DNA of 56,383 nt from a virus. Its lineage: Duplodnaviria; Caudoviricetes. The notes beneath the pieces are model-generated. The model was not told where the DNA came from, ran no database searches, and saw only the letters and a list, made by a program, of their open reading frames with translations. Positions within the stretch are counted from its first letter, which is position 1. The number at the start of each line of letters is the position of its first letter. Location of the stretch: positions 1 through 56,383 of IMG/VR virus record IMGVR_UViG_3300021185_001079; one strand, given 5' to 3'. Positions 7,718-55,086 of the stretch are shown here, piece after piece. Position numbers and translations under genes: made by a program.

Positions 7718-9294
7718 GTAAATCACTTGACGGTGTTCTTATTAAAAAAGCAAATAAGCAAGAACAATATACCGAAGAACAAATAGATCAGTTACTAAAA
7801 TGTATGGATCCTGATACCGGATATTTGTATTTTGCTGAACACTTTGCATACATTCAACACCCAGTCAAAGGTAAGTTATTATTTAAACCTTTTGAATACC
7901 AGCTAGGACTAATGCACTCGTACCATAACTATCGATTTAACATCAATATGATGCCTAGACAAACAGGTAAGACTACGTGTGCCAGTATATACTTAGCATG
8001 GTATGCTATGTTTGTACCAGATCAAACATGTCTTATTGCTGCACACAAGTATACAGGTGCCCAAGAGATTATGTCTCGTATACGCTTTGTTTATGAAAGT
8101 TGTCCTGATCATATTAGAGCAGGTGTTACAAGTTACAACAAAGGTTCAATAGAGTTTGAAAATGGAAGTCGAATAGTTAGCCAAACAACAACAGGCAACA
8201 CAGGACGTGGTATGTCAATTTCATTACTATACTGTGACGAATTTGCATTTGTTATGCCTAATATTGCTGAAGAGTTTTGGACTTCGATATCACCTACACT
8301 TGCAACAGGTGGCCGTGCTATTCTTACAAGTACACCAAACTCAGACGAAGACACGTTTGCTACTATTTGGAAACAAGCTGAAGATAAATTCGACGAGCAC
8401 GGTAACGAACAAGAGCTAGGGTCAAATGGATTTCACTCGTTTATTGCACACTGGAGCGAACATCCTGATCGTGACGAAGAATGGAAAAAGGCTGAAATTG
8501 GACGTATTGGCGAAGAAAAGTTTCGTCGTGAATACGGTTGCGAGTTCTTAGTCTTTGACGAAACATTAATTAACAGTCTTAAACTTGTTAATATGGAAGG
8601 TATATCACCGATTACAAATATGGGTCAAGTACGCTGGTACAAGAAGCCTACAAGTGATTATACATACTGTATCGCATTAGATCCGTCGATGGGAACCGGG
8701 GGCGACTATGCTGCAATACAAGTATTTGAATTACCAACATACAAACAAGTTGCTGAATGGCAACATAATACAACTGCTATACCTGGGCAGATTAAAGTTC
8801 TATCAGAAGTATGTAAATACCTCGTAGAACAAACTCAAAACCCGCAGGGAATTTATTGGAGCGTAGAGAACAATGGTATAGGCGAGGCTGCGTTAATCGT
8901 TATAAACGACTTTGGAGAAGAGAACATTCCGGGTTTGTTCGTCAGTGAGCCTATACGTAAAGGACATGTCCGTAAATTCCGCAAAGGATTTAATACTACA
9001 CATAGTACAAAAATTACTGCATGTAGTAGACTAAAGACTATGATTGAAAATGACAAAATGCATGTAAAAAGCAAGCCATTGATATCAGAATTAAAAAACT
9101 TTGTTGCAACATCAACTTCGTATATGGCAAAGCCTGGAACAACAGATGACCTAGTAAGTGCAACACTTCTTGCCCTCAGAATGATGGCAGTACTTAAAGA
9201 TTGGGATCCTCGAGTTTACGATTCGTTTAATCAAGCTGATGATTATGACGACTATGATATGCCAATGCCAATCTTCATTAGCAGCAATTATTGA
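7714..9294 (+). CDS. terL: Terminase large subunit (T4 gp17-like)
   Basis: PRQTGKTT Walker A, YCDEFAF Walker B, TSTPN coupling motif; nuclease motifs LDPSMG, VENN, DDLV. Confidence 0.97.
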   Translation: MSKSLDGVLIKKANKQEQYTEEQIDQLLKCMDPDTGYLYFAEHFAYIQHPVKGKLLFKPFEYQLGLMHSYHNYRFNINMMPRQTGKTTCASIYLAWYAMFVPDQTCLIAAHKYTGAQEIMSRIRFVYESCPDHIRAGVTSYNKGSIEFENGSRIVSQTTTGNTGRGMSISLLYCDEFAFVMPNIAEEFWTSISPTLATGGRAILTSTPNSDEDTFATIWKQAEDKFDEHGNEQELGSNGFHSFIAHWSEHPDRDEEWKKAEIGRIGEEKFRREYGCEFLVFDETLINSLKLVNMEGISPITNMGQVRWYKKPTSDYTYCIALDPSMGTGGDYAAIQVFELPTYKQVAEWQHNTTAIPGQIKVLSEVCKYLVEQTQNPQGIYWSVENNGIGEAALIVINDFGEENIPGLFVSEPIRKGHVRKFRKGFNTTHSTKITACSRLKTMIENDKMHVKSKPLISELKNFVATSTSYMAKPGTTDDLVSATLLALRMMAVLKDWDPRVYDSFNQADDYDDYDMPMPIFISSNY

Positions 9295-9304
9295 TAAATA
9301 CATT

Positions 9305-11326
9305 ATGAAAGATCTAAACACAATAGGCGAAGAATTATTCGACAAGCTACGAGGCCGATTCCAGAGCGTCACTATAGGCGGCGAGGACGGAAAGGTTACT
9401 AATATACCAACTGAAGCAAGGTTCTTTGATTTTGAATATACTGCTAATGGATCACCCTTAGGCAACATCAGTGTTTCAATATCTGAGGACGAAGGGTTAA
9501 CTGTTATATATTCTAAAGATATTGTTGCAACAGTAGAAGAAGAAAATGTAAAATCAGATTGGTTTGACTTTTTAAAAGAACTTAGAAGATTTAGTAAGAA
9601 AAGGTTGATGGACTTTGATATAAGAGATATTACAAAGTCAAATTTAACAAAAAGAGATTATAAATTTTTAGCGAACAAGCGTTTCGGAGACGGTAATATG
9701 AACGAATCAAAATTATATGGTACAGCACGTACAAGCTATCAAAAAGTTGGCGAAGCACGTATTATGATTAAGCATACAGAAAATGTAAACTTAGAAGTAG
9801 CTAACCCGCGTACAAAAAAGATATCAAATATCTATATTGAAAGCGCACAAGGCGAAAGATTCAAGTATCCATTCAAGCACCTAAGTGGCGCAAGAGCAAT
9901 GGCTCGTCATGTAGCAGAAGGCGGCAACTTGTATGATGACTTTGGTTCGCACATCATTGGACTATCAGAAGAGATGGCAAAACTACGCAAGTTTAAATCA
10001 TATATGGGTCGTTCAGCAGTAATGGCTGAAAGCCTAAGCGAGTATGTTGATGTTGTTAAAGATCGTATCAATACAGTAAGAAAAACAATTACTGCATTAC
10101 AAAAACCAAAGTTTTATGCAGAGGCATTTGCTGCATACGAAACACCTATCATGGAAGAAGTACCGGCAGACGTTGCAGAGAATTGGACTGATCAACTTAC
10201 TATTAAACAGTTTAATGAAGAACTAGCAGATGTATTTCCATACATTTATAAACTAGTAAGTGAAGCTACTAAAGCACAAGAACTAGGACTAGAGGACTTA
10301 GTAGATGAATCAGCACTTATGGCTTATGCAGGTGAAAAGAAGCACGGCAAAGAATATATGAAGAAAGCAGCAGCCGCAGGACGTGACGGCGCTTCGCAAG
10401 AAGAACTAGGCGCACTAAAAGACAAGTATAGCAAAGCAGAAAAAAATAAAAAAACTAAAGAAGAAATTGCTGTAGAGCAAGGCTTTGAAGAAATGATGGG
10501 ACAGTTTGCTGAAAGCCCGCAAGGACAAGCAGATGGTGAAATGAAAAGAGATAACGCAGCGTCTTTAAGCAGAGGCGAAGTTAAGGCTCAAAGAAAATCA
10601 ACTCGTGCAAAGCAGCGTGTAGCAAATAAAAAAGCAGCAAAAGTAGACGAAGCATATATTAACAATGCAAAAGATGCTGTAGACGCATTAGGTCAACTTC
10701 GCAGTAAAGGTAAACAAATTGAACGCGGTGACGGCACATACGAAGGCAACTTAGCAAATGAGTATGTAAACGATGTATGGGATGTATATACATGGCTACA
10801 GAATAAAACTCAAGATTTTCAAGGAATGGACAAGAACGCCAAAGCTACAATCGACGCAATGATGAAATTACGTAGCGAAGCAAAGAAACTTGAAACAGAA
10901 GCAGGCTCGGGATCAAATGGACGCTTTGGTAATGCAATCGTTAATACATTATATCCAGTAATGGAACTTATTAATAGTATGAAGCTCGAAGACGACGACA
11001 CAATGGACGTTAAAATCGATCCTAAAACAGGCACAATGGCAAAGGCAGATGCGCCTGAAGAAAAGAAAGAAAAGACACAAACTCCAATAAGTGAATTTAT
11101 CCTAAGTTATTTCGATAAAGAAACAGGTCAATTTCCAAAAGGAGAAACTGCTGTACTTACTATGATCGAAAAGGATTATGGCGAGCAGTTTATTGATCCT
11201 GCTAAATCGTTTATTGAAAAGGTTACTGCTAGGTTTGAAGAGCATCAGATGCGCACACAACCGCAGCAGATGGAAACGGACGATGAAGAGTTTGATCGAG
11301 TACGTCAACTAGCTGGACTAAGATAA
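9305..11326 (+). CDS. Large late protein of unknown function, probably virion-internal
   Basis: Long ORF; start after TAAATA-N4; several xxES/xxEA sites resembling gp21 cleavage motifs. Confidence 0.6.
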   Translation: MKDLNTIGEELFDKLRGRFQSVTIGGEDGKVTNIPTEARFFDFEYTANGSPLGNISVSISEDEGLTVIYSKDIVATVEEENVKSDWFDFLKELRRFSKKRLMDFDIRDITKSNLTKRDYKFLANKRFGDGNMNESKLYGTARTSYQKVGEARIMIKHTENVNLEVANPRTKKISNIYIESAQGERFKYPFKHLSGARAMARHVAEGGNLYDDFGSHIIGLSEEMAKLRKFKSYMGRSAVMAESLSEYVDVVKDRINTVRKTITALQKPKFYAEAFAAYETPIMEEVPADVAENWTDQLTIKQFNEELADVFPYIYKLVSEATKAQELGLEDLVDESALMAYAGEKKHGKEYMKKAAAAGRDGASQEELGALKDKYSKAEKNKKTKEEIAVEQGFEEMMGQFAESPQGQADGEMKRDNAASLSRGEVKAQRKSTRAKQRVANKKAAKVDEAYINNAKDAVDALGQLRSKGKQIERGDGTYEGNLANEYVNDVWDVYTWLQNKTQDFQGMDKNAKATIDAMMKLRSEAKKLETEAGSGSNGRFGNAIVNTLYPVMELINSMKLEDDDTMDVKIDPKTGTMAKADAPEEKKEKTQTPISEFILSYFDKETGQFPKGETAVLTMIEKDYGEQFIDPAKSFIEKVTARFEEHQMRTQPQQMETDDEEFDRVRQLAGLR

Positions 11327-37317: not shown

Positions 37318-38298
37318 ATGAGCATCGTATCCGATACATTGACTATATTCTTACCAGGCAAGCGTAAAACAACGCCTAGCGGATGGACTTCGTTTAATGC
37401 ACCATGCTGTGTGCATAACGGCGAGTCGGCAGATAAAAAAGCTCGTGGCGGATTAATAACAGAAGTTGACACAGTTAGCTATCATTGTTTCAATTGCGGA
37501 TATAAAGCAAGCTGGCAACCGGGAAGATCCTTTTCACATAAGATGAAAAAGCTATTTCAATGGCTTGGTGCACCGGATGATGTCATTACTAAAGTTGCAC
37601 TTGATGTAATGAGAGAGAACGAAGGTGTAGAAGTTCGAGAGCGCAAAATAGAAATACCTACTTTTCAAACAGTTCCACTTCCGCCAGATGCTGTAAAGAT
37701 TGCAGACATTACTGAATTTAATAAGTTTAGCATTGCTGTATTAGAATATATAGCTGCACGTAACTTAAACTTAGATGACACAACGTATTACTGGAGTTCT
37801 AGTCTTGCATATAGAGATAGAATTATTATTCCGTTTTATTTTGAAAAACGGATTGTAGGTTGGACAGCTAGAACTATAACAGTAGATAAAAAACCTAAGT
37901 ATATAAACGAGCAGCAGCCTGGGTTTGTATACGGCCTAGACAATCAAACGTTTGATAAGCAGTTTGCAATACTGTGTGAAGGACCAATCGATGCTATTCA
38001 TGTAGGCGGCTGCGCTATCGGCGGTAGTGAAGTTAATGATACCCAAGCATTACTGCTGAACAGGTTAACAAAAGATATCGTAGTTGTTCCTGATAGAGAT
38101 AGTGCAGGTAAGAAGTTAGTTGAAAGAGCAATCGATTTAGGATGGAGTGTTAGTTTACCAGATTGGACTTCGGACATAAATGATATCGGAGATTGCGTTA
38201 ATAAATACGGCAGACTATATGCACTGTATAGTATAGCATCAGCGGCAGAGAGCTCGCCACTAAAGATAAGACTGAAGGCAAAGAAATGGTTCGTTTAA
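37318..38298 (+). CDS. DNA primase
   Basis: Zn ribbon (NAPCC, YHCFNCG); TOPRIM motifs CEGPIDA and PDRDSAG. Confidence 0.9.
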   Translation: MSIVSDTLTIFLPGKRKTTPSGWTSFNAPCCVHNGESADKKARGGLITEVDTVSYHCFNCGYKASWQPGRSFSHKMKKLFQWLGAPDDVITKVALDVMRENEGVEVRERKIEIPTFQTVPLPPDAVKIADITEFNKFSIAVLEYIAARNLNLDDTTYYWSSSLAYRDRIIIPFYFEKRIVGWTARTITVDKKPKYINEQQPGFVYGLDNQTFDKQFAILCEGPIDAIHVGGCAIGGSEVNDTQALLLNRLTKDIVVVPDRDSAGKKLVERAIDLGWSVSLPDWTSDINDIGDCVNKYGRLYALYSIASAAESSPLKIRLKAKKWFV

Positions 38299-41649: not shown

Positions 41650-41908
41650 ATCGTATTTACCCGAAATGGGTCCTAGCGTAAAAAAAAATTGCTGCGCGGA
41701 TTTTTTAGGTGAAGTACTTACAGAAGTGAGGTGGTGATTTTGCATCACTCCATTTTTTAAGGCTTTGTTGTTTGTTTTTGTAAAGTAAAAAATTTAATTA
41801 TATAACCCCGACCCCCCGAGATTTATTTTTTTATTTTTTTTATAACATAAAAAAATTTGTAATGCAAGTGTTTTTTTTACTTGCATTACTATTTTATTTG
41901 TGCTAGTG

Positions 41909-42121
41909 TTATTTTAAAAAACTTAACACTTGTGCTTCCGTGTAGCGTGTGCAGTCGTTTGCATTAGCTGTGCGCAAGCTGCGCTGTAGCTGTTGCGTGT
42001 AAGGTGCTACGCTAAACGCATCTGCGCGATAGTAGTGTTGCAGCTTTGCTACTGCTGTTGCTGATAGCTTTTGTGCGTATGTTAAATGTGTTAAGCCCGG
42101 CTCCGTTACAACGTAATACAT
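41909..42121 (-). CDS. Early hypothetical protein (GA/GG-depleted island 1)
   Basis: AAGGAG RBS and promoter-hairpin upstream. Confidence 0.65.
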   Translation of the reverse strand: MYYVVTEPGLTHLTYAQKLSATAVAKLQHYYRADAFSVAPYTQQLQRSLRTANANDCTRYTEAQVLSFLK

Positions 42122-42201
42122 AGTGCGCTCCTTGTGCTGCTATACAACTGTTGTAGCACTTGCGCTATACAAACGCAAGTGCTAATTTGCTTTTATTTAA
42201 A

Positions 42202-42396
42202 TTAATTTTGCCACGCTAACACTTTGCCGTTTTGCACTTGCACTATGCAGCGTTGCATGTGTCCGCATACAGTGCGCACGTTTGCATAGTAATGCACAAT
42301 GTCGCCTGCTGCTGCTTTAACTTTGTTATAGTATTCAAAGCTAGTAAACGTAAGCGAGTTGTGTACAAGCGCATGTTTGTTACATAATGTTTTCAT
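42202..42396 (-). CDS. Early hypothetical protein (island 1)
   Basis: AAGGAG RBS before MKTL. Confidence 0.65.
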   Translation of the reverse strand: MKTLCNKHALVHNSLTFTSFEYYNKVKAAAGDIVHYYANVRTVCGHMQRCIVQVQNGKVLAWQN

Positions 42397-42482
42397 TTGC
42401 AGCTCCTTGTTTGCTATACATACTGTGTAACAGCTTTTGCATAACAGTGCAAGTAAAAAATGCACTGTTATGCTTTTTATTT

Positions 42483-42740
42483 TTAATTAATATACGTTAG
42501 TTGTGCGTGTATATTTTCACGTACTACAGTGTCTAACGTGCTGCTTAGTGCAGCGTTTGCTAAACTTGCTGCATTAGTATGCTGTGCGTAGTTTGCATAT
42601 ACATACTGCAATGCTTGCACATTGTCTAATATGCTGTAGTCATTTTTTTCCGCTACGCTGTCATGTGCAGCAGCTTTTATTTTTGTAGCTAAATTTTCAA
42701 TAGTTGCAATAACTGTGTTTGTGTATTTTGTGTTTTGCAT
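42483..42740 (-). CDS. Early hypothetical protein (island 1)
   Basis: 85 aa, no G/P/W; leader AAAGTAGTAAAAC-ATG. Confidence 0.65.
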   Translation of the reverse strand: MQNTKYTNTVIATIENLATKIKAAAHDSVAEKNDYSILDNVQALQYVYANYAQHTNAASLANAALSSTLDTVVRENIHAQLTYIN

Positions 42741-42835
42741 GTTTTACTACTTTGCTGTTTTGTTGCTTACAAATATGTTGTAGCATGTTAAGCGTAGCAT
42801 AGCAAGCACTAACTGCACTTGCTATGCTTTTTATT

Positions 42836-43354
42836 TTAGTTTAAGTTAAGCGTTTGCTTGTTAGCTGTTATGCTGTTAATATTGTGCAGCGCTATTGTGC
42901 GTACTACAACGCTATGCGTTACGTTGTTAGTAGCGTTGTACGTTGTGCTTGTGTTAGTTAGCAGCTTTTGTGCTGCACTAGCAGTTAAGTATTGCGCTAC
43001 TTGCTGCTTTGTTGCTGCTACGTTGTTAATTGTATACGTGCTGCTTGCTGCGTTAAAAATTGCATACAAATACAAATTGTTGTTTGTTTTGTGCTGCACA
43101 ATGCTATAGCAGCTTGTGTGCTTAAAGTAATTGCTGCTAGTAACAAAATTTTGTGTGTTTGCATTTTTGTTTACTGCGTTTGCAAATACGCTAGTAGCAG
43201 CTTTAATGTTTGCAAATAGCTGCACGTTTGCGCTAGTAGTTTTTTTAATTACTACAGCTTTGTGCGCTGCTGCTGTTTTAACTGTTGTAGTGTAGTTTAC
43301 GTTTGCAAAAGTTGTGCTTGCGTTTGCTAGTAATTTTTTTATTTGCTGTTGCAT
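42836..43354 (-). CDS. Early hypothetical protein lacking D, E, G, P and W
   Basis: 172-aa ORF with promoter TTTACA-N17-TATACA and leader matching its neighbours. Confidence 0.75.
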   Translation of the reverse strand: MQQQIKKLLANASTTFANVNYTTTVKTAAAHKAVVIKKTTSANVQLFANIKAATSVFANAVNKNANTQNFVTSSNYFKHTSCYSIVQHKTNNNLYLYAIFNAASSTYTINNVAATKQQVAQYLTASAAQKLLTNTSTTYNATNNVTHSVVVRTIALHNINSITANKQTLNLN

Positions 43355-43512
43355 GTTTTACACTTTGCTGTTTGTTGCTTACAAGTAGTGTATAGCAGCT
43401 TTTAAAACAGTTGTAAAGCATAAAATTAATTTATTTTAGCTATTGCATTACATTTTTATTTGTGCTACAGTTAAGTAGCGGCCTCTGAGGTTTGGTCCGA
43501 CTGAGGTAAAAG

Positions 43513-43543
43513 TAGGAGACAACTGTTGCCAGCTGCCTCCTTG
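43513..43543 (-). terminator. Probable terminator, GCAA tetraloop
   Basis: Minus-strand AGGAGGCAGCUG-GCAA-CAGUUGUCUCCU followed by ACUUUU. Confidence 0.65.
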
Positions 43544-43603
43544 TGGGGTTGTGTGTGCCGCTTGCGCCTGTGTGCTACACCTCTGCGCCTTAGCTGCGGC
43601 TTG

Positions 43604-43732
43604 CTAGTATCCAAAGCCATATGCAATATACATTACGACTGGTGGAATGGCGAATAAACTTAATACGCTTAGTACATCTTGTGCAAAGTTCTTTAGCGTT
43701 AAGTCTGCTAGTACTTCGTTTAAATAATTCAT
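43604..43732 (-). CDS. Small membrane protein (not in ORF track)
   Basis: AAGGAG RBS; MNYLNEVLADL...MYIAYGFGY, 42 aa. Confidence 0.6.
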   Translation of the reverse strand: MNYLNEVLADLTLKNFAQDVLSVLSLFAIPPVVMYIAYGFGY

Positions 43733-43794
43733 CGTGTGCTCCTTTGTTGCTTAGTAGTACACTAGCGCATTGCTGCGCTAGTGTCAACACCTAA

Positions 43795-43968
43795 TTAGTC
43801 ACTCATGCAACGTTCCATTGCTTCGCCTTGTGCAAGTGTAATGCCATACTGTTCAAAGTGCTGTGCATCTGCTGCTACACGCATCTCTGTTGCTTTACGT
43901 GCTTGCTCGGCAGTAAGCCCTGTTTGCATTGCGTTAAGGAAAAATTCGTCTTGCTGTAAGTCTGTCAT
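43795..43968 (-). CDS. Early hypothetical protein (not in ORF track)
   Basis: GAGGAG RBS; MTDLQQDEFF..., 57 aa. Confidence 0.65.
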   Translation of the reverse strand: MTDLQQDEFFLNAMQTGLTAEQARKATEMRVAADAQHFEQYGITLAQGEAMERCMSD

Positions 43969-44027
43969 GTTGTGCTCCTCATTTGCTATACAAGTACACT
44001 AGCGCCTTTCAACGCTAGTGTCAACAC

Positions 44028-46165: not shown

Positions 46166-46242
46166 TGGTGCTCCCACTAGGACTCGAACCTAGGACCAAA
46201 GCGTTATGAGCGCTCTGCTCTAACCAACTGAGCTACAGGAGC
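46166..46242 (-). tRNA. tRNA with CAT anticodon, probably Ile2 (lysidine) rather than Met
   Basis: Cloverleaf, CTCATAA loop, C4/C5 in acceptor stem, encoded CCA. Confidence 0.85.
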
Positions 46243-46252
46243 ATTATTATAT

Positions 46253-46328
46253 TGGTGAGCCGTACAGGATTTGAACCTGTGACCCACTGATTAAAAGTCA
46301 GTTGCTCTACCAACTGAGCTAACGGCCC
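46253..46328 (-). tRNA. tRNA-Lys(TTT)
   Basis: GGGCCGTTAGCTCAG...CTTTTAA...GGTTCAAATCC...CCA. Confidence 0.95.
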
Positions 46329-46338
46329 ACTTTATATT

Positions 46339-46422
46339 TGGTACCCGCGGCCGGACTCGAACCGGCACGCCTTGCGGCCACAGATTTTAAGTCTGTTATG
46401 TCTACCATTCCATCACGCGGGC
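46339..46422 (-). tRNA. tRNA-Leu(TAA)
   Basis: Long variable arm, CTTAAAA loop, GGTTCGAGTCC, CCA. Confidence 0.95.
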
Positions 46423-46426
46423 GTAT

Positions 46427-46503
46427 TGGCGGTCCCTATAGGATTCGAACCTATGACCTACTGCTTAGAAGGCAGTTGCTCTATCCAGCTGAGCTAAGGA
46501 ACC
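46427..46503 (-). tRNA. tRNA-Arg(TCT)
   Basis: CTTCTAA loop, GGTTCGAATCC, GCCA end. Confidence 0.95.
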
Positions 46504-46805: not shown

Positions 46806-46901
46806 CTTGCTCTCCTTACATGTATAGCAGCGGGGCCTGTCGCCTCTGCGTTGTGTGTTACACTAGCACATTGCTGCGCTAGTGTAAAGTGTTTTTATTA
46901 G

Positions 46902-47150
46902 CTATGCTAATACGTCATATGCTGCTTCTATAATATTATGCGCACAGCTGTCTGTAGCAAAGCCCTCCTCCGCTGCAAAATCAACGCTGCTGCTGCACAT
47001 AATAACATCTGTTTGCCAATTAATGTTATGTTGCTTAAACACTGCTGCTAATTGTGCTGCTGTGTTTACTGCTGCAACTTGTACGTTGTTAACAGTTACA
47101 ACAATTACTGCGTCTTGTGCGTTTAAAAATACGTTGTTTGTTTTTTGCAT
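46902..47150 (-). CDS. Early hypothetical protein (island 2)
   Basis: GAGGG RBS; TTTACA variant cassette promoter. Confidence 0.7.
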   Translation of the reverse strand: MQKTNNVFLNAQDAVIVVTVNNVQVAAVNTAAQLAAVFKQHNINWQTDVIMCSSSVDFAAEEGFATDSCAHNIIEAAYDVLA

Positions 47151-47222
47151 AATACTTCCCTCTATGCTTGTTAACTTATAAAGTACACTAGCACATTGCT
47201 GCGCTAGTGTAAAGTGTTTTTT

Positions 47223-47630
47223 TTAATATGCTGCAAAAATATTTGCTGCTAAGTTTGCAAATGTGCTGTCGTTAGCAGCAGCGTCATTACACGCATCCTC
47301 AAATTGCTCCGCTATGCACTCCCTGTACTCTGTGTCGTAGCATAGCAGTGCTTGTGCTGCTTGTGCTAGTGTAAACGTAAACACAGCACTATCGTCGTCT
47401 GCTGTTGCATAAAGCATTTGCAAATTGTCTAGCACTTCCATTGCGTCCTGTAAACGCACAAAGTACTGCTCGTCGTCGTCTGTTACGCAGCTTGCGTTTA
47501 ATGCTGTTAAGTTTTGCAATACGTCTGCAATAAACTGTACTACAAACGCTTTGTGTGCTTGTGTAAGTGTAAAGTTTACAACTGTATTGTTGTTTAAATT
47601 TGTAAAAACTTGTGTGTTTACTGTATACAT
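47223..47630 (-). CDS. Early hypothetical protein lacking G, P and W (island 2)
   Basis: 135 aa; leader AAAGTAGTAAAAAAC-ATG. Confidence 0.7.
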   Translation of the reverse strand: MYTVNTQVFTNLNNNTVVNFTLTQAHKAFVVQFIADVLQNLTALNASCVTDDDEQYFVRLQDAMEVLDNLQMLYATADDDSAVFTFTLAQAAQALLCYDTEYRECIAEQFEDACNDAAANDSTFANLAANIFAAY

Positions 47631-47808
47631 GTTTTTTACTACTTTGCTGTTTGTTGCTTACAAATTTGTTGTAGCAGTTTTAAAACAGCAACGCAAGCAC
47701 AAATTGCAATAAAATGTGCTTGCTATACTTTTTTTACTAAACTATACTTTAGTATAGTTCGCCCCTACTTATGCGCACTTGACAATACTAAAGTAGGGGC
47801 CTCTGAAT

Positions 47809-49709: not shown

Positions 49710-50165
49710 TTATGCTACAAACGCCTCTGCGTCTGCTCTAATCTGCTCTATGATGTTAGCAGTCTTGCTTGGATTGCTACGCAGCTCTGCGGGTATGTTG
49801 CTGCCCATAAACGTGTAGGGCTTGTTCCAGCCTCCGCCTATGTTGATGTCTATGTAGTGGCTGCGGTGGAAGTAATCAGACATTGAATCGTCTTCGTTAA
49901 AGTACCGCTCGCCCTTGCAAGCGTCTAGCAGCTCGTTTAAGAAGTCACGTGCGATGCCGCTGTAGTGTGTGTCAATATGGTAGACGTTTACGTCTTGATA
50001 TACATCTCTCATGTACTCTGAAAAGTCAATGCGTCCTGAGCGCAGTGTAACGACTAGCGTCATGTGATGACGGACAGCAATTGAACCCTTCATGTCGTAC
50101 TTTTTAAGTACAGCTTTGATGCCTGGTGCTAAACGTGCTTTGTCTTCTTTACTTACATATGCCAT
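49710..50165 (-). CDS. Early protein resembling a large-polyvalent-protein-associated domain (LPD25/29-like)
   Basis: MAYVS...KGSIAV...VNVYHI...DDSMSDYF...YIDINIG. Confidence 0.5.
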   Translation of the reverse strand: MAYVSKEDKARLAPGIKAVLKKYDMKGSIAVRHHMTLVVTLRSGRIDFSEYMRDVYQDVNVYHIDTHYSGIARDFLNELLDACKGERYFNEDDSMSDYFHRSHYIDINIGGGWNKPYTFMGSNIPAELRSNPSKTANIIEQIRADAEAFVA

Positions 50166-52206: not shown

Positions 52207-52449
52207 TCAACACCTAAATAAACAATAATCAACTAATTTACTATATACTTGATCACGTACATCAGTATCAAAGGCTTCCTCAAAGCCTGTACGACCACTT
52301 AGGGTGAGTAGTTGCTCCTGCACCCACTTCCATACCTTTTCGTCGCTGGTGCTGCGAGGAAATTGACTTGCAGCATACACAATCTCTTGTACCTTGCGAT
52401 CACCTTCGGCGCTAAACATTCCGAAGCCATTTATATTAAAGTAACTCAT
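52207..52449 (-). CDS. Early hypothetical protein
   Basis: Cassette; the ORF end runs into the next repeat. Confidence 0.65.
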   Translation of the reverse strand: MSYFNINGFGMFSAEGDRKVQEIVYAASQFPRSTSDEKVWKWVQEQLLTLSGRTGFEEAFDTDVRDQVYSKLVDYCLFRC

Positions 52450-52513
52450 GTCGTGCTCCTCATTTGCTATACAAGTACACTAGCGCCTTGCGGCACTAGT
52501 GTCAACACCTAAT

Positions 52514-52867
52514 TTAGGCTGCTGCTAAAATACTTGGACCGCGGTTTGCGGGCTTGTGCAGGGTCACGTGCGTTGCTGAGTAACGCTCGCTACTGTCTGC
52601 TTTGTTAACAAAGCTGGTGTACTTGTAGGGGTCGTAAGTTACAGCTACAGTGTCCTCTGTGAACAGCTCGGGCTGCTCTACAAGTGTGCCACGTACAAAC
52701 GCATGCACGTTCTTCTTGCCTTCTTCACGCACCTTGCGGTTGCCTGCGGCTTGCACTGCGAAGGTTACGTCCTCCAGCTGTACGTTGTAGGTATGGGCAA
52801 TTACTTTGCCTTTGTGACGAACGCTGAACAAGTTCTTATGTAAGTTGTAATATACTTCTACACGCAT
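52514..52867 (-). CDS. Early hypothetical protein
   Basis: VYYNLHK...KKNVHAFVRG...YDPY; RBS TGAGGG before ATG. Confidence 0.7.
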   Translation of the reverse strand: MRVEVYYNLHKNLFSVRHKGKVIAHTYNVQLEDVTFAVQAAGNRKVREEGKKNVHAFVRGTLVEQPELFTEDTVAVTYDPYKYTSFVNKADSSERYSATHVTLHKPANRGPSILAAA

Positions 52868-52939
52868 TTTCAAGCCCTCACTTGTTTGTTGCTATAGTAG
52901 TACACTAGCGCCTTTCAACGCTAGTGTCAACACCTTTTT

Positions 52940-53149
52940 TTAATCTTGTAGGTTAGTTATTGCATTATTTAGGAGCTTCATCTCGTCAGCAAACATCTCG
53001 TCGCTCATGTTCGCCAGCGCATATGTCATTGCGCTTTCTAAATAGCCCGCAACGTATGCTTGCCCATTGTGTGGGTGCTTTGCTTCCGCAGCGTGTGCAA
53101 ATGCTTTTAAAGTGTTTCTTGCGCTGTCCAGTTTAGTTACAAAGTCCAT
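52940..53149 (-). CDS. Early hypothetical protein
   Basis: GAGGAG RBS; AYVAGYLES. Confidence 0.65.
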   Translation of the reverse strand: MDFVTKLDSARNTLKAFAHAAEAKHPHNGQAYVAGYLESAMTYALANMSDEMFADEMKLLNNAITNLQD

Positions 53150-54448: not shown

Positions 54449-54610
54449 TTAGTTCGCACTAGCAGTTTTATACAATTTTGATAGTTGTGCTTGTGTGACA
54501 GTGTACAAGCACGGCAGTGTAACATTGTGTGCATAACGCTGCTGCTGTGTTGCAAGGTCTACAATTAAAAGTGTATTGTAGTTAATTACAGTGTGTCCAA
54601 ATTTTGGCAT
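54449..54610 (-). CDS. Early hypothetical protein (not in ORF track; GA/GG-poor)
   Basis: GAGGAG RBS; MPKFGHTVIN..., 53 aa. Confidence 0.55.
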   Translation of the reverse strand: MPKFGHTVINYNTLLIVDLATQQQRYAHNVTLPCLYTVTQAQLSKLYKTASAN

Positions 54611-54673
54611 CGTGTGCTCCTCAGCTTGTAGCGTACACTAGCGCATTGCTGCGCTAGTGTCAACCACTTTTTT

Positions 54674-54862
54674 TTATTCGTCTGCTGCTGCTTCTTCTAG
54701 CATTGTGTTAACATCGTAGCCGTACACTAGCATCTCTTGCAACAATTGCTTGCACGTCTCATAGCTGTCCCACTGTTGTATTTCAAACTCGTCCTCGCAG
54801 TCATACGCATTGCTTAGTGCTATTTGCATGTTGTAAAACATTTTTGTGTGTGCTGCTTGCAT
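54674..54862 (-). CDS. Early hypothetical protein (island 3)
   Basis: GGAG RBS; GA-free promoter variant upstream. Confidence 0.65.
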   Translation of the reverse strand: MQAAHTKMFYNMQIALSNAYDCEDEFEIQQWDSYETCKQLLQEMLVYGYDVNTMLEEAAADE

Positions 54863-55086
54863 AGTAGTGCTCCGTTTTTGTTTGTTGCTACAGTTACGTT
54901 GTAGCAGCTTTTAAGCAGCAGCGCAAGCAAAAAATGCATAAAAATAAAATTAATTTTTTTTAATTTAGCTGTTGACCTTTGCACTAGATGATGTTATACG
55001 TTGTGTGAGGTCAGCAAAGCGGCGAGGGGCGCAAGTAGGGGACGGGTTAGGAGTGCGGGGTGTGACCTCCGGTTCTAGCGAGAATC

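Follow-up and report, generated by a model that had tools for sequence, protein, structure and literature searches.

A 783-bp stretch of a marine phage genome lacks GA, GG, TC and CC on both strands

Introduction

Phage DNA modification provides the closest described counterpart of the locus reported here. In the DpdA-dependent 7-deazaguanine systems, as set out in the available parts of two reports, nearly all GA and GGC of phage CAjan are modified with preQ0 (PMC7544227), and Pseudomonas jumbo phage PA5oct, which encodes QueE and PTPS and resists enzymes with GA or GG in their sites, is inferred in a preprint to carry modified guanine at GA and/or GG (PMC12191111). Our locus belongs to a marine phage whose lineage is related to PA5oct, and it lies in a window of 56,383 bp (the whole stretch of DNA that was analyzed, which is an entire IMG/VR record, linear and with a CheckV completeness estimate of 16%). 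At 42698-43480 this window contains no GA, TC, GG or CC, and the stretch includes a gene for a 172-aa protein without Asp, Glu, Gly, Pro or Trp. The missing steps are the same two guanine steps that the DpdA system uses, on both strands of the duplex. The cases differ in that the available parts of those reports describe no purged genes, that no dpdA or que gene was seen on this fragment, and that the context here is not GGC-specific.

Two systems that act on RNA are also similar in part. Rho utilization proceeds through 5'-YC (Y, pyrimidine), so that coding-strand UC and CC are the ligand of its primary site, and the purine bias of genes has been described as Rho avoidance, a case of a transcription factor shaping coding-strand composition (PMC12360218; PMC13323073). 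At our locus, however, the removal is total and local (1-3 kb), and the losses of GA and GG, of promoter consensus and of the ribosome site in the core are not explained by Rho. CmdTAC is likewise a defense that reads a dinucleotide, acting on GA strongly and on other purine pairs weakly, the Shine-Dalgarno sequence included, according to the available part of the preprint (bioRxiv 10.1101/2024.02.24.581662). It differs in operating in E. coli against T-even phages and in recognizing GA in single-stranded mRNA, and the same part of the preprint is silent on TC and CC.

Loss of words because a host factor reads them is familiar from restriction-site avoidance and CpG depletion. The first-step-transfer DNA of phage T5 reportedly contains no EcoRI sites, and animal RNA viruses are CpG-depleted in response to ZAP, as the available part of one source has it (PMC10191365). 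Those cases involve sites of 4-8 bp, or one dinucleotide genome-wide with synonymous changes, whereas here selected genes have lost four dinucleotides completely, and with them five amino acids, the -35 consensus and the ribosome site. A message made immune through removal of every target site also has a precedent in single-protein production, where ACA-less mRNAs survive MazF. That precedent is engineered and concerns a 3-nt RNA site, while the present case is natural, concerns 2-nt steps and possibly operates at the level of DNA. No description of gene-scale purging of this kind was found in the literature searched, the scope of which excluded supplementary files.

Results

An earlier note on this DNA, made from its letters alone, had singled out the stretch, and counting bears it out:

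42698-43480, both strands: core of 783 bp without GA, TC, GG or CC
42836-43354, minus strand: gene for the 172-aa protein, without D, E, G, P or W, of a conserved phage family

Given the local composition (A172, C113, G165, T333), 135.2 of the four steps are expected where none occurs (P ~3e-65 under an independence approximation), and 2000 mononucleotide shuffles yielded a mean of 134.9 and a minimum of 110. The core is the longest four-step-free gap of the window, the next being 235 bp at 47524-47759. The wider island at 41840-43480, which the earlier note had called nearly as depleted, holds 33 forbidden steps where 301.5 are expected. When all 16 dinucleotides were scanned across the record, only GA, GG, TC and CC had outlier gaps (3.05 to 7.9 times the expected maximum), and the gaps of the remaining 12 reached at most 1.77 times that maximum. 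The G+C content of the island, at 35-42%, has not collapsed relative to 38.5% for the whole window and 41-51% for the neighboring early region.

The amino acid content of the protein does not explain this, since codon order avoids the forbidden steps and the non-coding flanks are empty of them too. Permuting synonymous codons of the 172-aa gene, with the protein and its codon usage kept, created a mean of 17.8 forbidden steps at codon junctions (minimum 9), and none of 5000 permutations reached zero. When the same protein was encoded as 17 ordinary neighboring genes would encode it, following their codon usage, the mean was 43.5 and the minimum 24 in 3000 trials. The non-coding segments at 43355-43480 (126 bp) and 42741-42835 (95 bp) contain no forbidden steps, compared to expectations of 17.6 and 16.2. 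As the earlier note had also claimed, serine is encoded by AGY codons alone (AGC 12 times and AGT once among 13). An explanation at the level of codons or tRNAs is ruled out by the empty junctions and non-coding DNA. General restriction-site avoidance was rejected by eye, the allowed palindromes TGCA, AGCT and GCGC being common in the stretch, and avoidance of CRISPR protospacer adjacent motifs was rejected on logic, as a cut at any place kills the phage.

The stretch is not an assembly artifact. Fourteen DNA runs contain 41800-44000 at 88% or more of sampled words, one of them possibly being the source, and an independent contig of run X2 spans 42501-43786 with one difference. The metagenome runs that contain this region are from seawater or other marine samples. 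Contigs from the RNA libraries of two studies (X15 and X17) cover parts of the island genes, although such contigs do not show strand, level or freedom from DNA.

Beyond what the earlier note described, the ban is oriented by transcription, layered, and tied to one gene family. In the first layer, the coding strand has no TC or CC, meaning that the template strand has no GA or GG, at the cost of Pro and TCN-encoded Ser. In the second layer, seen in the core, coding-strand GA and GG are cleared as well. With them go the Shine-Dalgarno sequence, GA in the -35 box, Gly and Trp, and in the end Asp and Glu. The note also needs correcting in that the coding-strand TC/CC-free stretch is longer than the stretch free on both strands, and that two further zones exist:

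42357-43480, minus strand: layer-1 zone, 1124 bp of coding strand without TC or CC
42483-42740, minus strand: 85-aa gene, coding TC/CC 0, GA in Asp/Glu codons alone (7), one GG
42202-42396, minus strand: 64-aa gene, partly purged, 9 forbidden steps against 40 expected, AAGGAG ribosome site kept
41909-42121, minus strand: 70-aa gene, partly purged, 12 forbidden steps against 48 expected
46835-47781, minus strand: second layer-1 zone, 947 bp; coding strand of 46845-47760 with TC/CC 0, GA 31, GG 13
46902-47150 and 47223-47630, minus strand: genes of the second zone, of 82 aa and 135 aa (the latter acidic)
47525-47759: promoter/leader core of the second zone, free on both strands
54607-54974, minus strand: third layer-1 zone, 368 bp
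54674-54862, minus strand: 62-aa acidic gene of the third zone, TC/CC 0, GA 15, GG 4
54880-54938: copy of the island upstream element, in the third zone

Across the window, the longest coding-strand stretch free of TC and CC measures 1124 bp, as opposed to 785 bp for GA and GG. Around the first zone, the plus strand is GA-free for 1131 bp and GG-free for 1381 bp. The acidic proteins of the second and third zones keep GA solely in Asp and Glu codons.

The purge extends to signals for transcription and translation. Upstream of small units between 43722 and 54671 are fourteen copies of a 74-nt promoter/leader repeat, each containing, on the minus strand, TTGACA, a 17-nt spacer in which the inverted repeat CTAGCGC...GCGCTAG forms a hairpin, TAGTGT, a leader with GAGGAG, and ATG. 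We read this repeat as an ordinary early-type promoter with a ribosome site. By comparison with it, the 172-aa gene appears to have a GA-free counterpart of the TTGACA promoter, which a simple consensus scan did not list:

43389-43417, minus strand: putative promoter of the 172-aa gene, -35 TTTACA (43412-43417), 17-nt spacer, -10 TATACA (43389-43394)
43355-43388, minus strand: leader without Shine-Dalgarno sequence, CAGCAAAG where ordinary units carry GAGGAG
42777-42805, minus strand: putative promoter of the 85-aa gene, TTGCTA-N17-TACAAC
43514-43541, minus strand: terminator-like hairpin of the upstream ordinary gene
41859-41889: terminator-like hairpin at the distal island end, from a consensus scan only

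The correspondence agrees with the earlier note's view that these are early genes. Because the purge begins about 35 bp past the upstream hairpin (43514-43541), ahead of the promoter, the island starts as a new cassette. The fully purged units of about eight lineages have TTGCAx or TTTACA as -35 box, never TTGACA, and no Shine-Dalgarno sequence, as judged by eye; in the relatives, the purged units also carry a 5' hairpin. Normal and layer-1-only homologs retain TTGACx and GGAG, again by eye.

A word-indexed search for relatives of the 172-aa protein found 315 at E≤0.01 out of 372 candidates. Among the best 120 of these 315, 30 have none of the five residues and others have 20-26. A profile search over 1.84 billion representatives recovered 205 clusters (50% identity) at E≤0.001. 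The share of Asp, Glu, Gly, Pro and Trp is below 4% in 14 of the 134 full-length clusters and 10-22% in most, so that family composition ranges from normal to fully purged. From normal to purged members the residue swaps are D>N, E>Q/K/H/T/A, P>A and G>N/S, which include transversions and double changes. These swaps, the existence of normal homologs, the avoidance at codon junctions and the uncollapsed G+C argue, as the earlier note had supposed, for strong selection against an event directed at GR/YC (R, purine) and not for hypermutation. By parsimony on a 133-member tree, the purged state requires nine changes, at least seven of which are forced by supported branches; since shared composition would pull the purged rows together, this count is conservative. 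The stretch is real, strongly non-random, conserved and convergent.

Five large related records (G001-G005) were scanned whole, except that the scan of G004 covered 140 of its 142 kb. Four of them, each with a purged or partly purged family copy, have a sole island, in each case at the family locus: G001 (327 kb) at 52401-52940, with a partly purged copy, G003 (154 kb) at 92261-94020, G004 at 1-600 and G005 (90 kb) at 37421-38160. The fifth, G002 (362.8 kb, complete, with terminal repeats), has a normal family copy and no island. Unrelated small neighbors are purged together with the family gene, over about 8 kb in L009, and L013 combines a normal family gene with a purged neighbor. In G002 (the record of L019), a 561-bp stretch without TA (264750-265311; 4.3 times the expected maximum) overlaps a 304-bp TT-free stretch and is about 4.5 kb distant from the family gene, which is unpurged there.

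A class survey of 72 distinct family genes from 95 loci showed the two layers again. Twenty-five genes are fully purged, 24 partly purged, 14 normal and 5 layer-1-only, with coding TC/CC near zero and GA/GG normal; 4 are unclassed. The layer-1-only gene of L129, for example, has 35 GA, 25 GG, no TC, no CC and no proline, and its codon junctions hold plentiful GA and GG. L145 has a 3-kb zone whose coding strand contains a single TC/CC, with GA/GG reaching 24 per 100 bp, and in L119, which has a layer-1 zone of 1126 bp, a gene on the opposite strand shows the mirror pattern. The reverse state, with GA/GG purged and TC/CC normal, was found in no gene among those surveyed. In 21 partly purged genes, GA outside Asp/Glu codons stands at 3-4% of normal, TC at 3-5%, GG at 14-26% and CC at 14-20%, while Asp/Glu codons stand at 47%. 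Template-strand GR is thus lost first, followed by free coding-strand GA, by GG together with Gly, and finally by Asp and Glu.

With the alignment, AlphaFold2 gave the 172-aa protein a predicted local distance difference test score (pLDDT) of 92.6 and a predicted template modeling score (pTM) of 0.85. VIA-align matched the model to YaeO/Rof (Z 7.4; 70 of 172 residues, root-mean-square deviation 2.5), Hfq (Z 6.0) and WYL domains (Z 5.3-6.2), all below Z 8. These middling matches, over about 60-70 residues, suggest that part of the model is a small Sm-like barrel. Foldseek found nothing in the PDB at E≤0.001 and matched the model to four uncharacterized phage proteins in BFVD. At the sequence level, no Pfam or PHROG match was found for purged or normal family members, tblastn of the family against 50,697 phage records found no match, a PDB sequence search with the 172-aa protein found none either (best E 0.56), and a protein atlas offered no usable lead. 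The anti-END1 inhibitor of PA5oct (gp52) was rejected as a homolog (hhalign probability 0.04), and the neighbors of normal homologs (63 open reading frames, ORFs) include no annotated partner in common. In L018 (5526-15010) a member of normal composition sits among scaffold, portal-like and terminase genes of a seemingly smaller, different phage, so the family is not confined to giant phages. In L014, a gene at 9281-9853, directly upstream of a normal-composition member, encodes a restriction endonuclease of the MvaI/BcnI family.

Discussion

The explanation we consider best is that a guanine-directed event on DNA at GA and GG selects for genes free of its target, and we hold it tentatively, with somewhat less than even confidence. 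We read the stretch as the core of a cassette of small early-type units, each with its own sigma-70-like promoter, which selection has rewritten to miss one two-base step. A DNA event at 5'-GR, stronger at GA than at GG, would stop expression at single sites and would matter most on the template strand; it could be the phage's own guanine modification, or a host enzyme acting on modified guanines (by excision or cleavage, for example). The cassette would be kept free of target sites because host RNA polymerase would have to be able to read these few genes even though the event marks all other parts of the genome. A guanine event at 5'-GR on either strand would account for all four steps, for their equal ranking on both strands and for the purged -35 box, and if template lesions or adducts matter most, the polarity would be explained as well. 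Equal depletion of GA and TC, and of GG and CC, on the two strands fits a single reader that prefers GA over GG.

Relatives of the phage supply some of the machinery that such a modification might use. G001 (240001-260000; L052 3132-9657) encodes an unknown 365-aa protein, FolE, a phosphoribosyltransferase, GMP reductase, a HIT protein, QueE and an FkbM methyltransferase in a block that is syntenic with the QueE region of PA5oct, and its PTPS gene lies away from this block. The 365-aa protein could be the missing transglycosylase. PF01702, the model for tRNA-guanine transglycosylase, found nothing in five related records; as it also misses PA5oct, which is considered G-modified, it does not see members of this clade. 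The longest gap of PA5oct (217 bp at 267341-267557; L166 17341-17557) contains three tandem TTGCAA-N17-TATAAT promoters before a tRNA cluster.

Several findings weigh against a guanine event of this kind. The search that the earlier note had proposed, for dpdA, queCDE or other modification genes, found none on the 56-kb fragment (PHROGs, 59 ORFs; Pfam, 40 ORFs), which represents 16% of the genome, and no pathway gene was found on the purged contigs G003-G005, all of which are fragments. Conversely, the unpurged and complete G002 has FolE, PTPS and a weak QueC match. CAjan shows no purge, its longest GA/TC-free gap (81 bp) being the expected maximum, and PA5oct (286,783 bp) has no gene-scale purge and gaps only up to 217 bp. 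The note's proposal that the phage's own modification is responsible thus keeps the support of the GA/GG motif inferred in the available part of the PA5oct preprint (PMC12191111), and lacks that of a modification gene on the fragment or of a gene-scale purge in CAjan or PA5oct. Its further claim that the first-expressed genes must stay unmodified fails for early genes generally: the fourteen ordinary early promoters of the same phage retain TTGACA and GGAG. In addition, a GGC-specific context as in CAjan was not found in the purge, and in the layer-1-only class there is no pressure on coding-strand G steps, which a duplex-level reader alone does not predict. Finally, 7-deazaguanines keep Watson-Crick pairing, and to our knowledge they are not known to block RNA polymerases.

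The polarity of the ban is exactly that of mRNA, and the transcripts themselves could be what evades host factors reading RNA dinucleotides, a proposal that we rate as rather unlikely but as a serious rival and the main one. Without UC and CC, the Rho primary site would have no ligand; its clefts bind 5'-YC and recognize up to six CC/UC steps (PMC12360218; PMC13323073), and the zero UC/CC across 1124 nt of coding strand leaves the RNA of that zone with no 5'-YC step. Without GA and GG, a purine-step reader such as a CmdT-like ADP-ribosyltransferase would be escaped. The shaping of coding-strand composition by Rho has a precedent (PMC13323073). CmdT modifies GA strongly and other purine pairs weakly, and its authors consider escape through motif loss implausible for a whole genome, according to the available part of their preprint (bioRxiv 10.1101/2024.02.24.581662). 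Since an attack on mRNA can be undone, it makes sense to carry an antidote on proofed mRNA. Loss of the Shine-Dalgarno sequence would uncouple translation and make proofing against Rho compulsory, which would explain why the GR purge never occurs without the YC purge. The best structural matches, to Sm-like proteins including YaeO/Rof and Hfq, are suggestive, and the family protein might be a Rof/Hfq-like Rho antagonist needed before Rho acts, but the fold match is middling (Z under 8). This account also requires two unrelated readers with complementary step pairs and the same ranking of GA over GG and TC over CC. The -35 box and the DNA ahead of the promoter are purged too, which would need read-through or promoters copied from each other. 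The coding strand remains C-rich (C 22.7% versus G 15.0%), which suits Rho, and the TC/CC sites left over in 27 nearly purged genes, 93 in all, show no enrichment within the final 150 nt (32%, versus 27% in normal genes). Rho needs several YC steps, and giving up every proline to remove even the last such step exceeds what its avoidance would lead one to expect.

Three other explanations are less likely still. A host DNA-directed enzyme unrelated to phage modification, either a cytosine deaminase preferring TC over CC or a DNA ADP-ribosyltransferase, could threaten cassette functions that must stay intact. Deaminases of the DddA and APOBEC types do prefer 5'-TC over 5'-CC; the single rule of a pyrimidine before the target C would yield all four steps with TC above CC, and the coding strand is the exposed strand of the transcription bubble, which fits layer 1. 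We nevertheless regard this as improbable, in that we know of no such defense with this context, lesions outside the cassette would still cause mutations, and the coding strand shows no excess of TT or CT. Among ADP-ribosyltransferases, DarT2 has a four-base motif, and DarT1, having no consensus motif, is ruled out as the reader (PMC11543638). Avoidance of spontaneous damage from ultraviolet (UV) light or oxidation would suit a phage from sunlit seawater metagenomes, a relative of which (G003) encodes the UV endonuclease UvdE about 8 kb from its island. (6-4) photoproducts form mainly at TC and CC, and oxidation occurs most readily at the 5' G of GG or GA. However, AA is the commonest coding-strand step (150 of 782), making the template rich in TT, where dimers form most often; depletion is stronger for GA than for GG, opposite to the order of oxidation; and a target of 0.8 kb, with the genome measuring about 350 kb, would be under very weak selection. 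We think this very improbable. Local hypermutation (G>A, C>T) without selection, or a sequencing or assembly artifact, is scarcely credible: D>N swaps are common, as hypermutation would have it, but E>Q, E>H/T/A, P>A and G>N occur too, the island G+C has not collapsed, and the reading frames are intact and conserved in 205 clusters, with a confident AlphaFold model (pLDDT 92.6) and a stretch reproduced in 14 runs.

Whatever the reader, it is possible, if doubtful, that the cassette is a target-free set of counter-defense or take-over genes around a new Sm-like family, spelled with fewer nucleotide steps and amino acids than usual, whose template and mRNA both escape an immune or modification activity reading single GR/YC steps and which are expressed when all else is blocked. 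If so, it would represent a new principle of phage-host conflict and a natural demonstration that folded proteins are possible without Asp, Glu, Gly, Pro and Trp. Selection on a two-base step can prevail over five amino acids, the ribosome-binding site and the -35 consensus, and has done so repeatedly in one family. The purge points to an unrecognized GR/YC reader in infected marine bacteria, for which phage guanine modification and its consequences, Rho and a dinucleotide-directed defense are candidates. The pairs of purged and normal homologs offer an experimental handle as well as natural proteins with a 15-letter alphabet and confident folds. The signature can be scanned for in other phages, where it may mark genes that must be expressed under attack.

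Additional features of the window and its relatives

On the plus strand, 1-40.8 kb carries the genes of a giant myovirus of T4-like type (tail tube, large terminase, gp32-like single-stranded DNA-binding protein, UvsX/UvsY, helicases and primase), and by its large terminase the nearest cultured relative is PA5oct (58% identity). From 41.9 kb to the window end there are small minus-strand genes and four tRNA genes:

46166-46503, minus strand: tRNA cluster (Met-CAT, Lys-TTT, Leu-TAA, Arg-TCT), between ordinary and purged early units

A sugar-related block at 15664-36123 contains two Methyltransf_24 genes, glycosyltransferases of families 17 and 8, a sulfotransferase, a cytidylyltransferase/cupin fusion, KDO-8-P synthase-like and CMP-KDO synthetase-like genes, and many family-less ORFs. 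G003 (L020-L027) encodes UvdE, a Serratia-type non-specific endonuclease, ClpX, two ClpP, NifU, PhoH, Hsp20, peptide deformylase and a sodium:dicarboxylate symporter. A small protein at 49710-50165 (PHROG 10415, unknown function) has homologs in the purged contigs G000, G003 and G005 and none in G001 or G002; this contrast of gene content between purged contigs (G000, G003-G005) and G001/G002 has low power, with about one-third of genes in common. A 17-nt motif with AGCGGGGCCT occurs in five copies in the early region, at 46824, 49695, 55744, 56184 and 56327.

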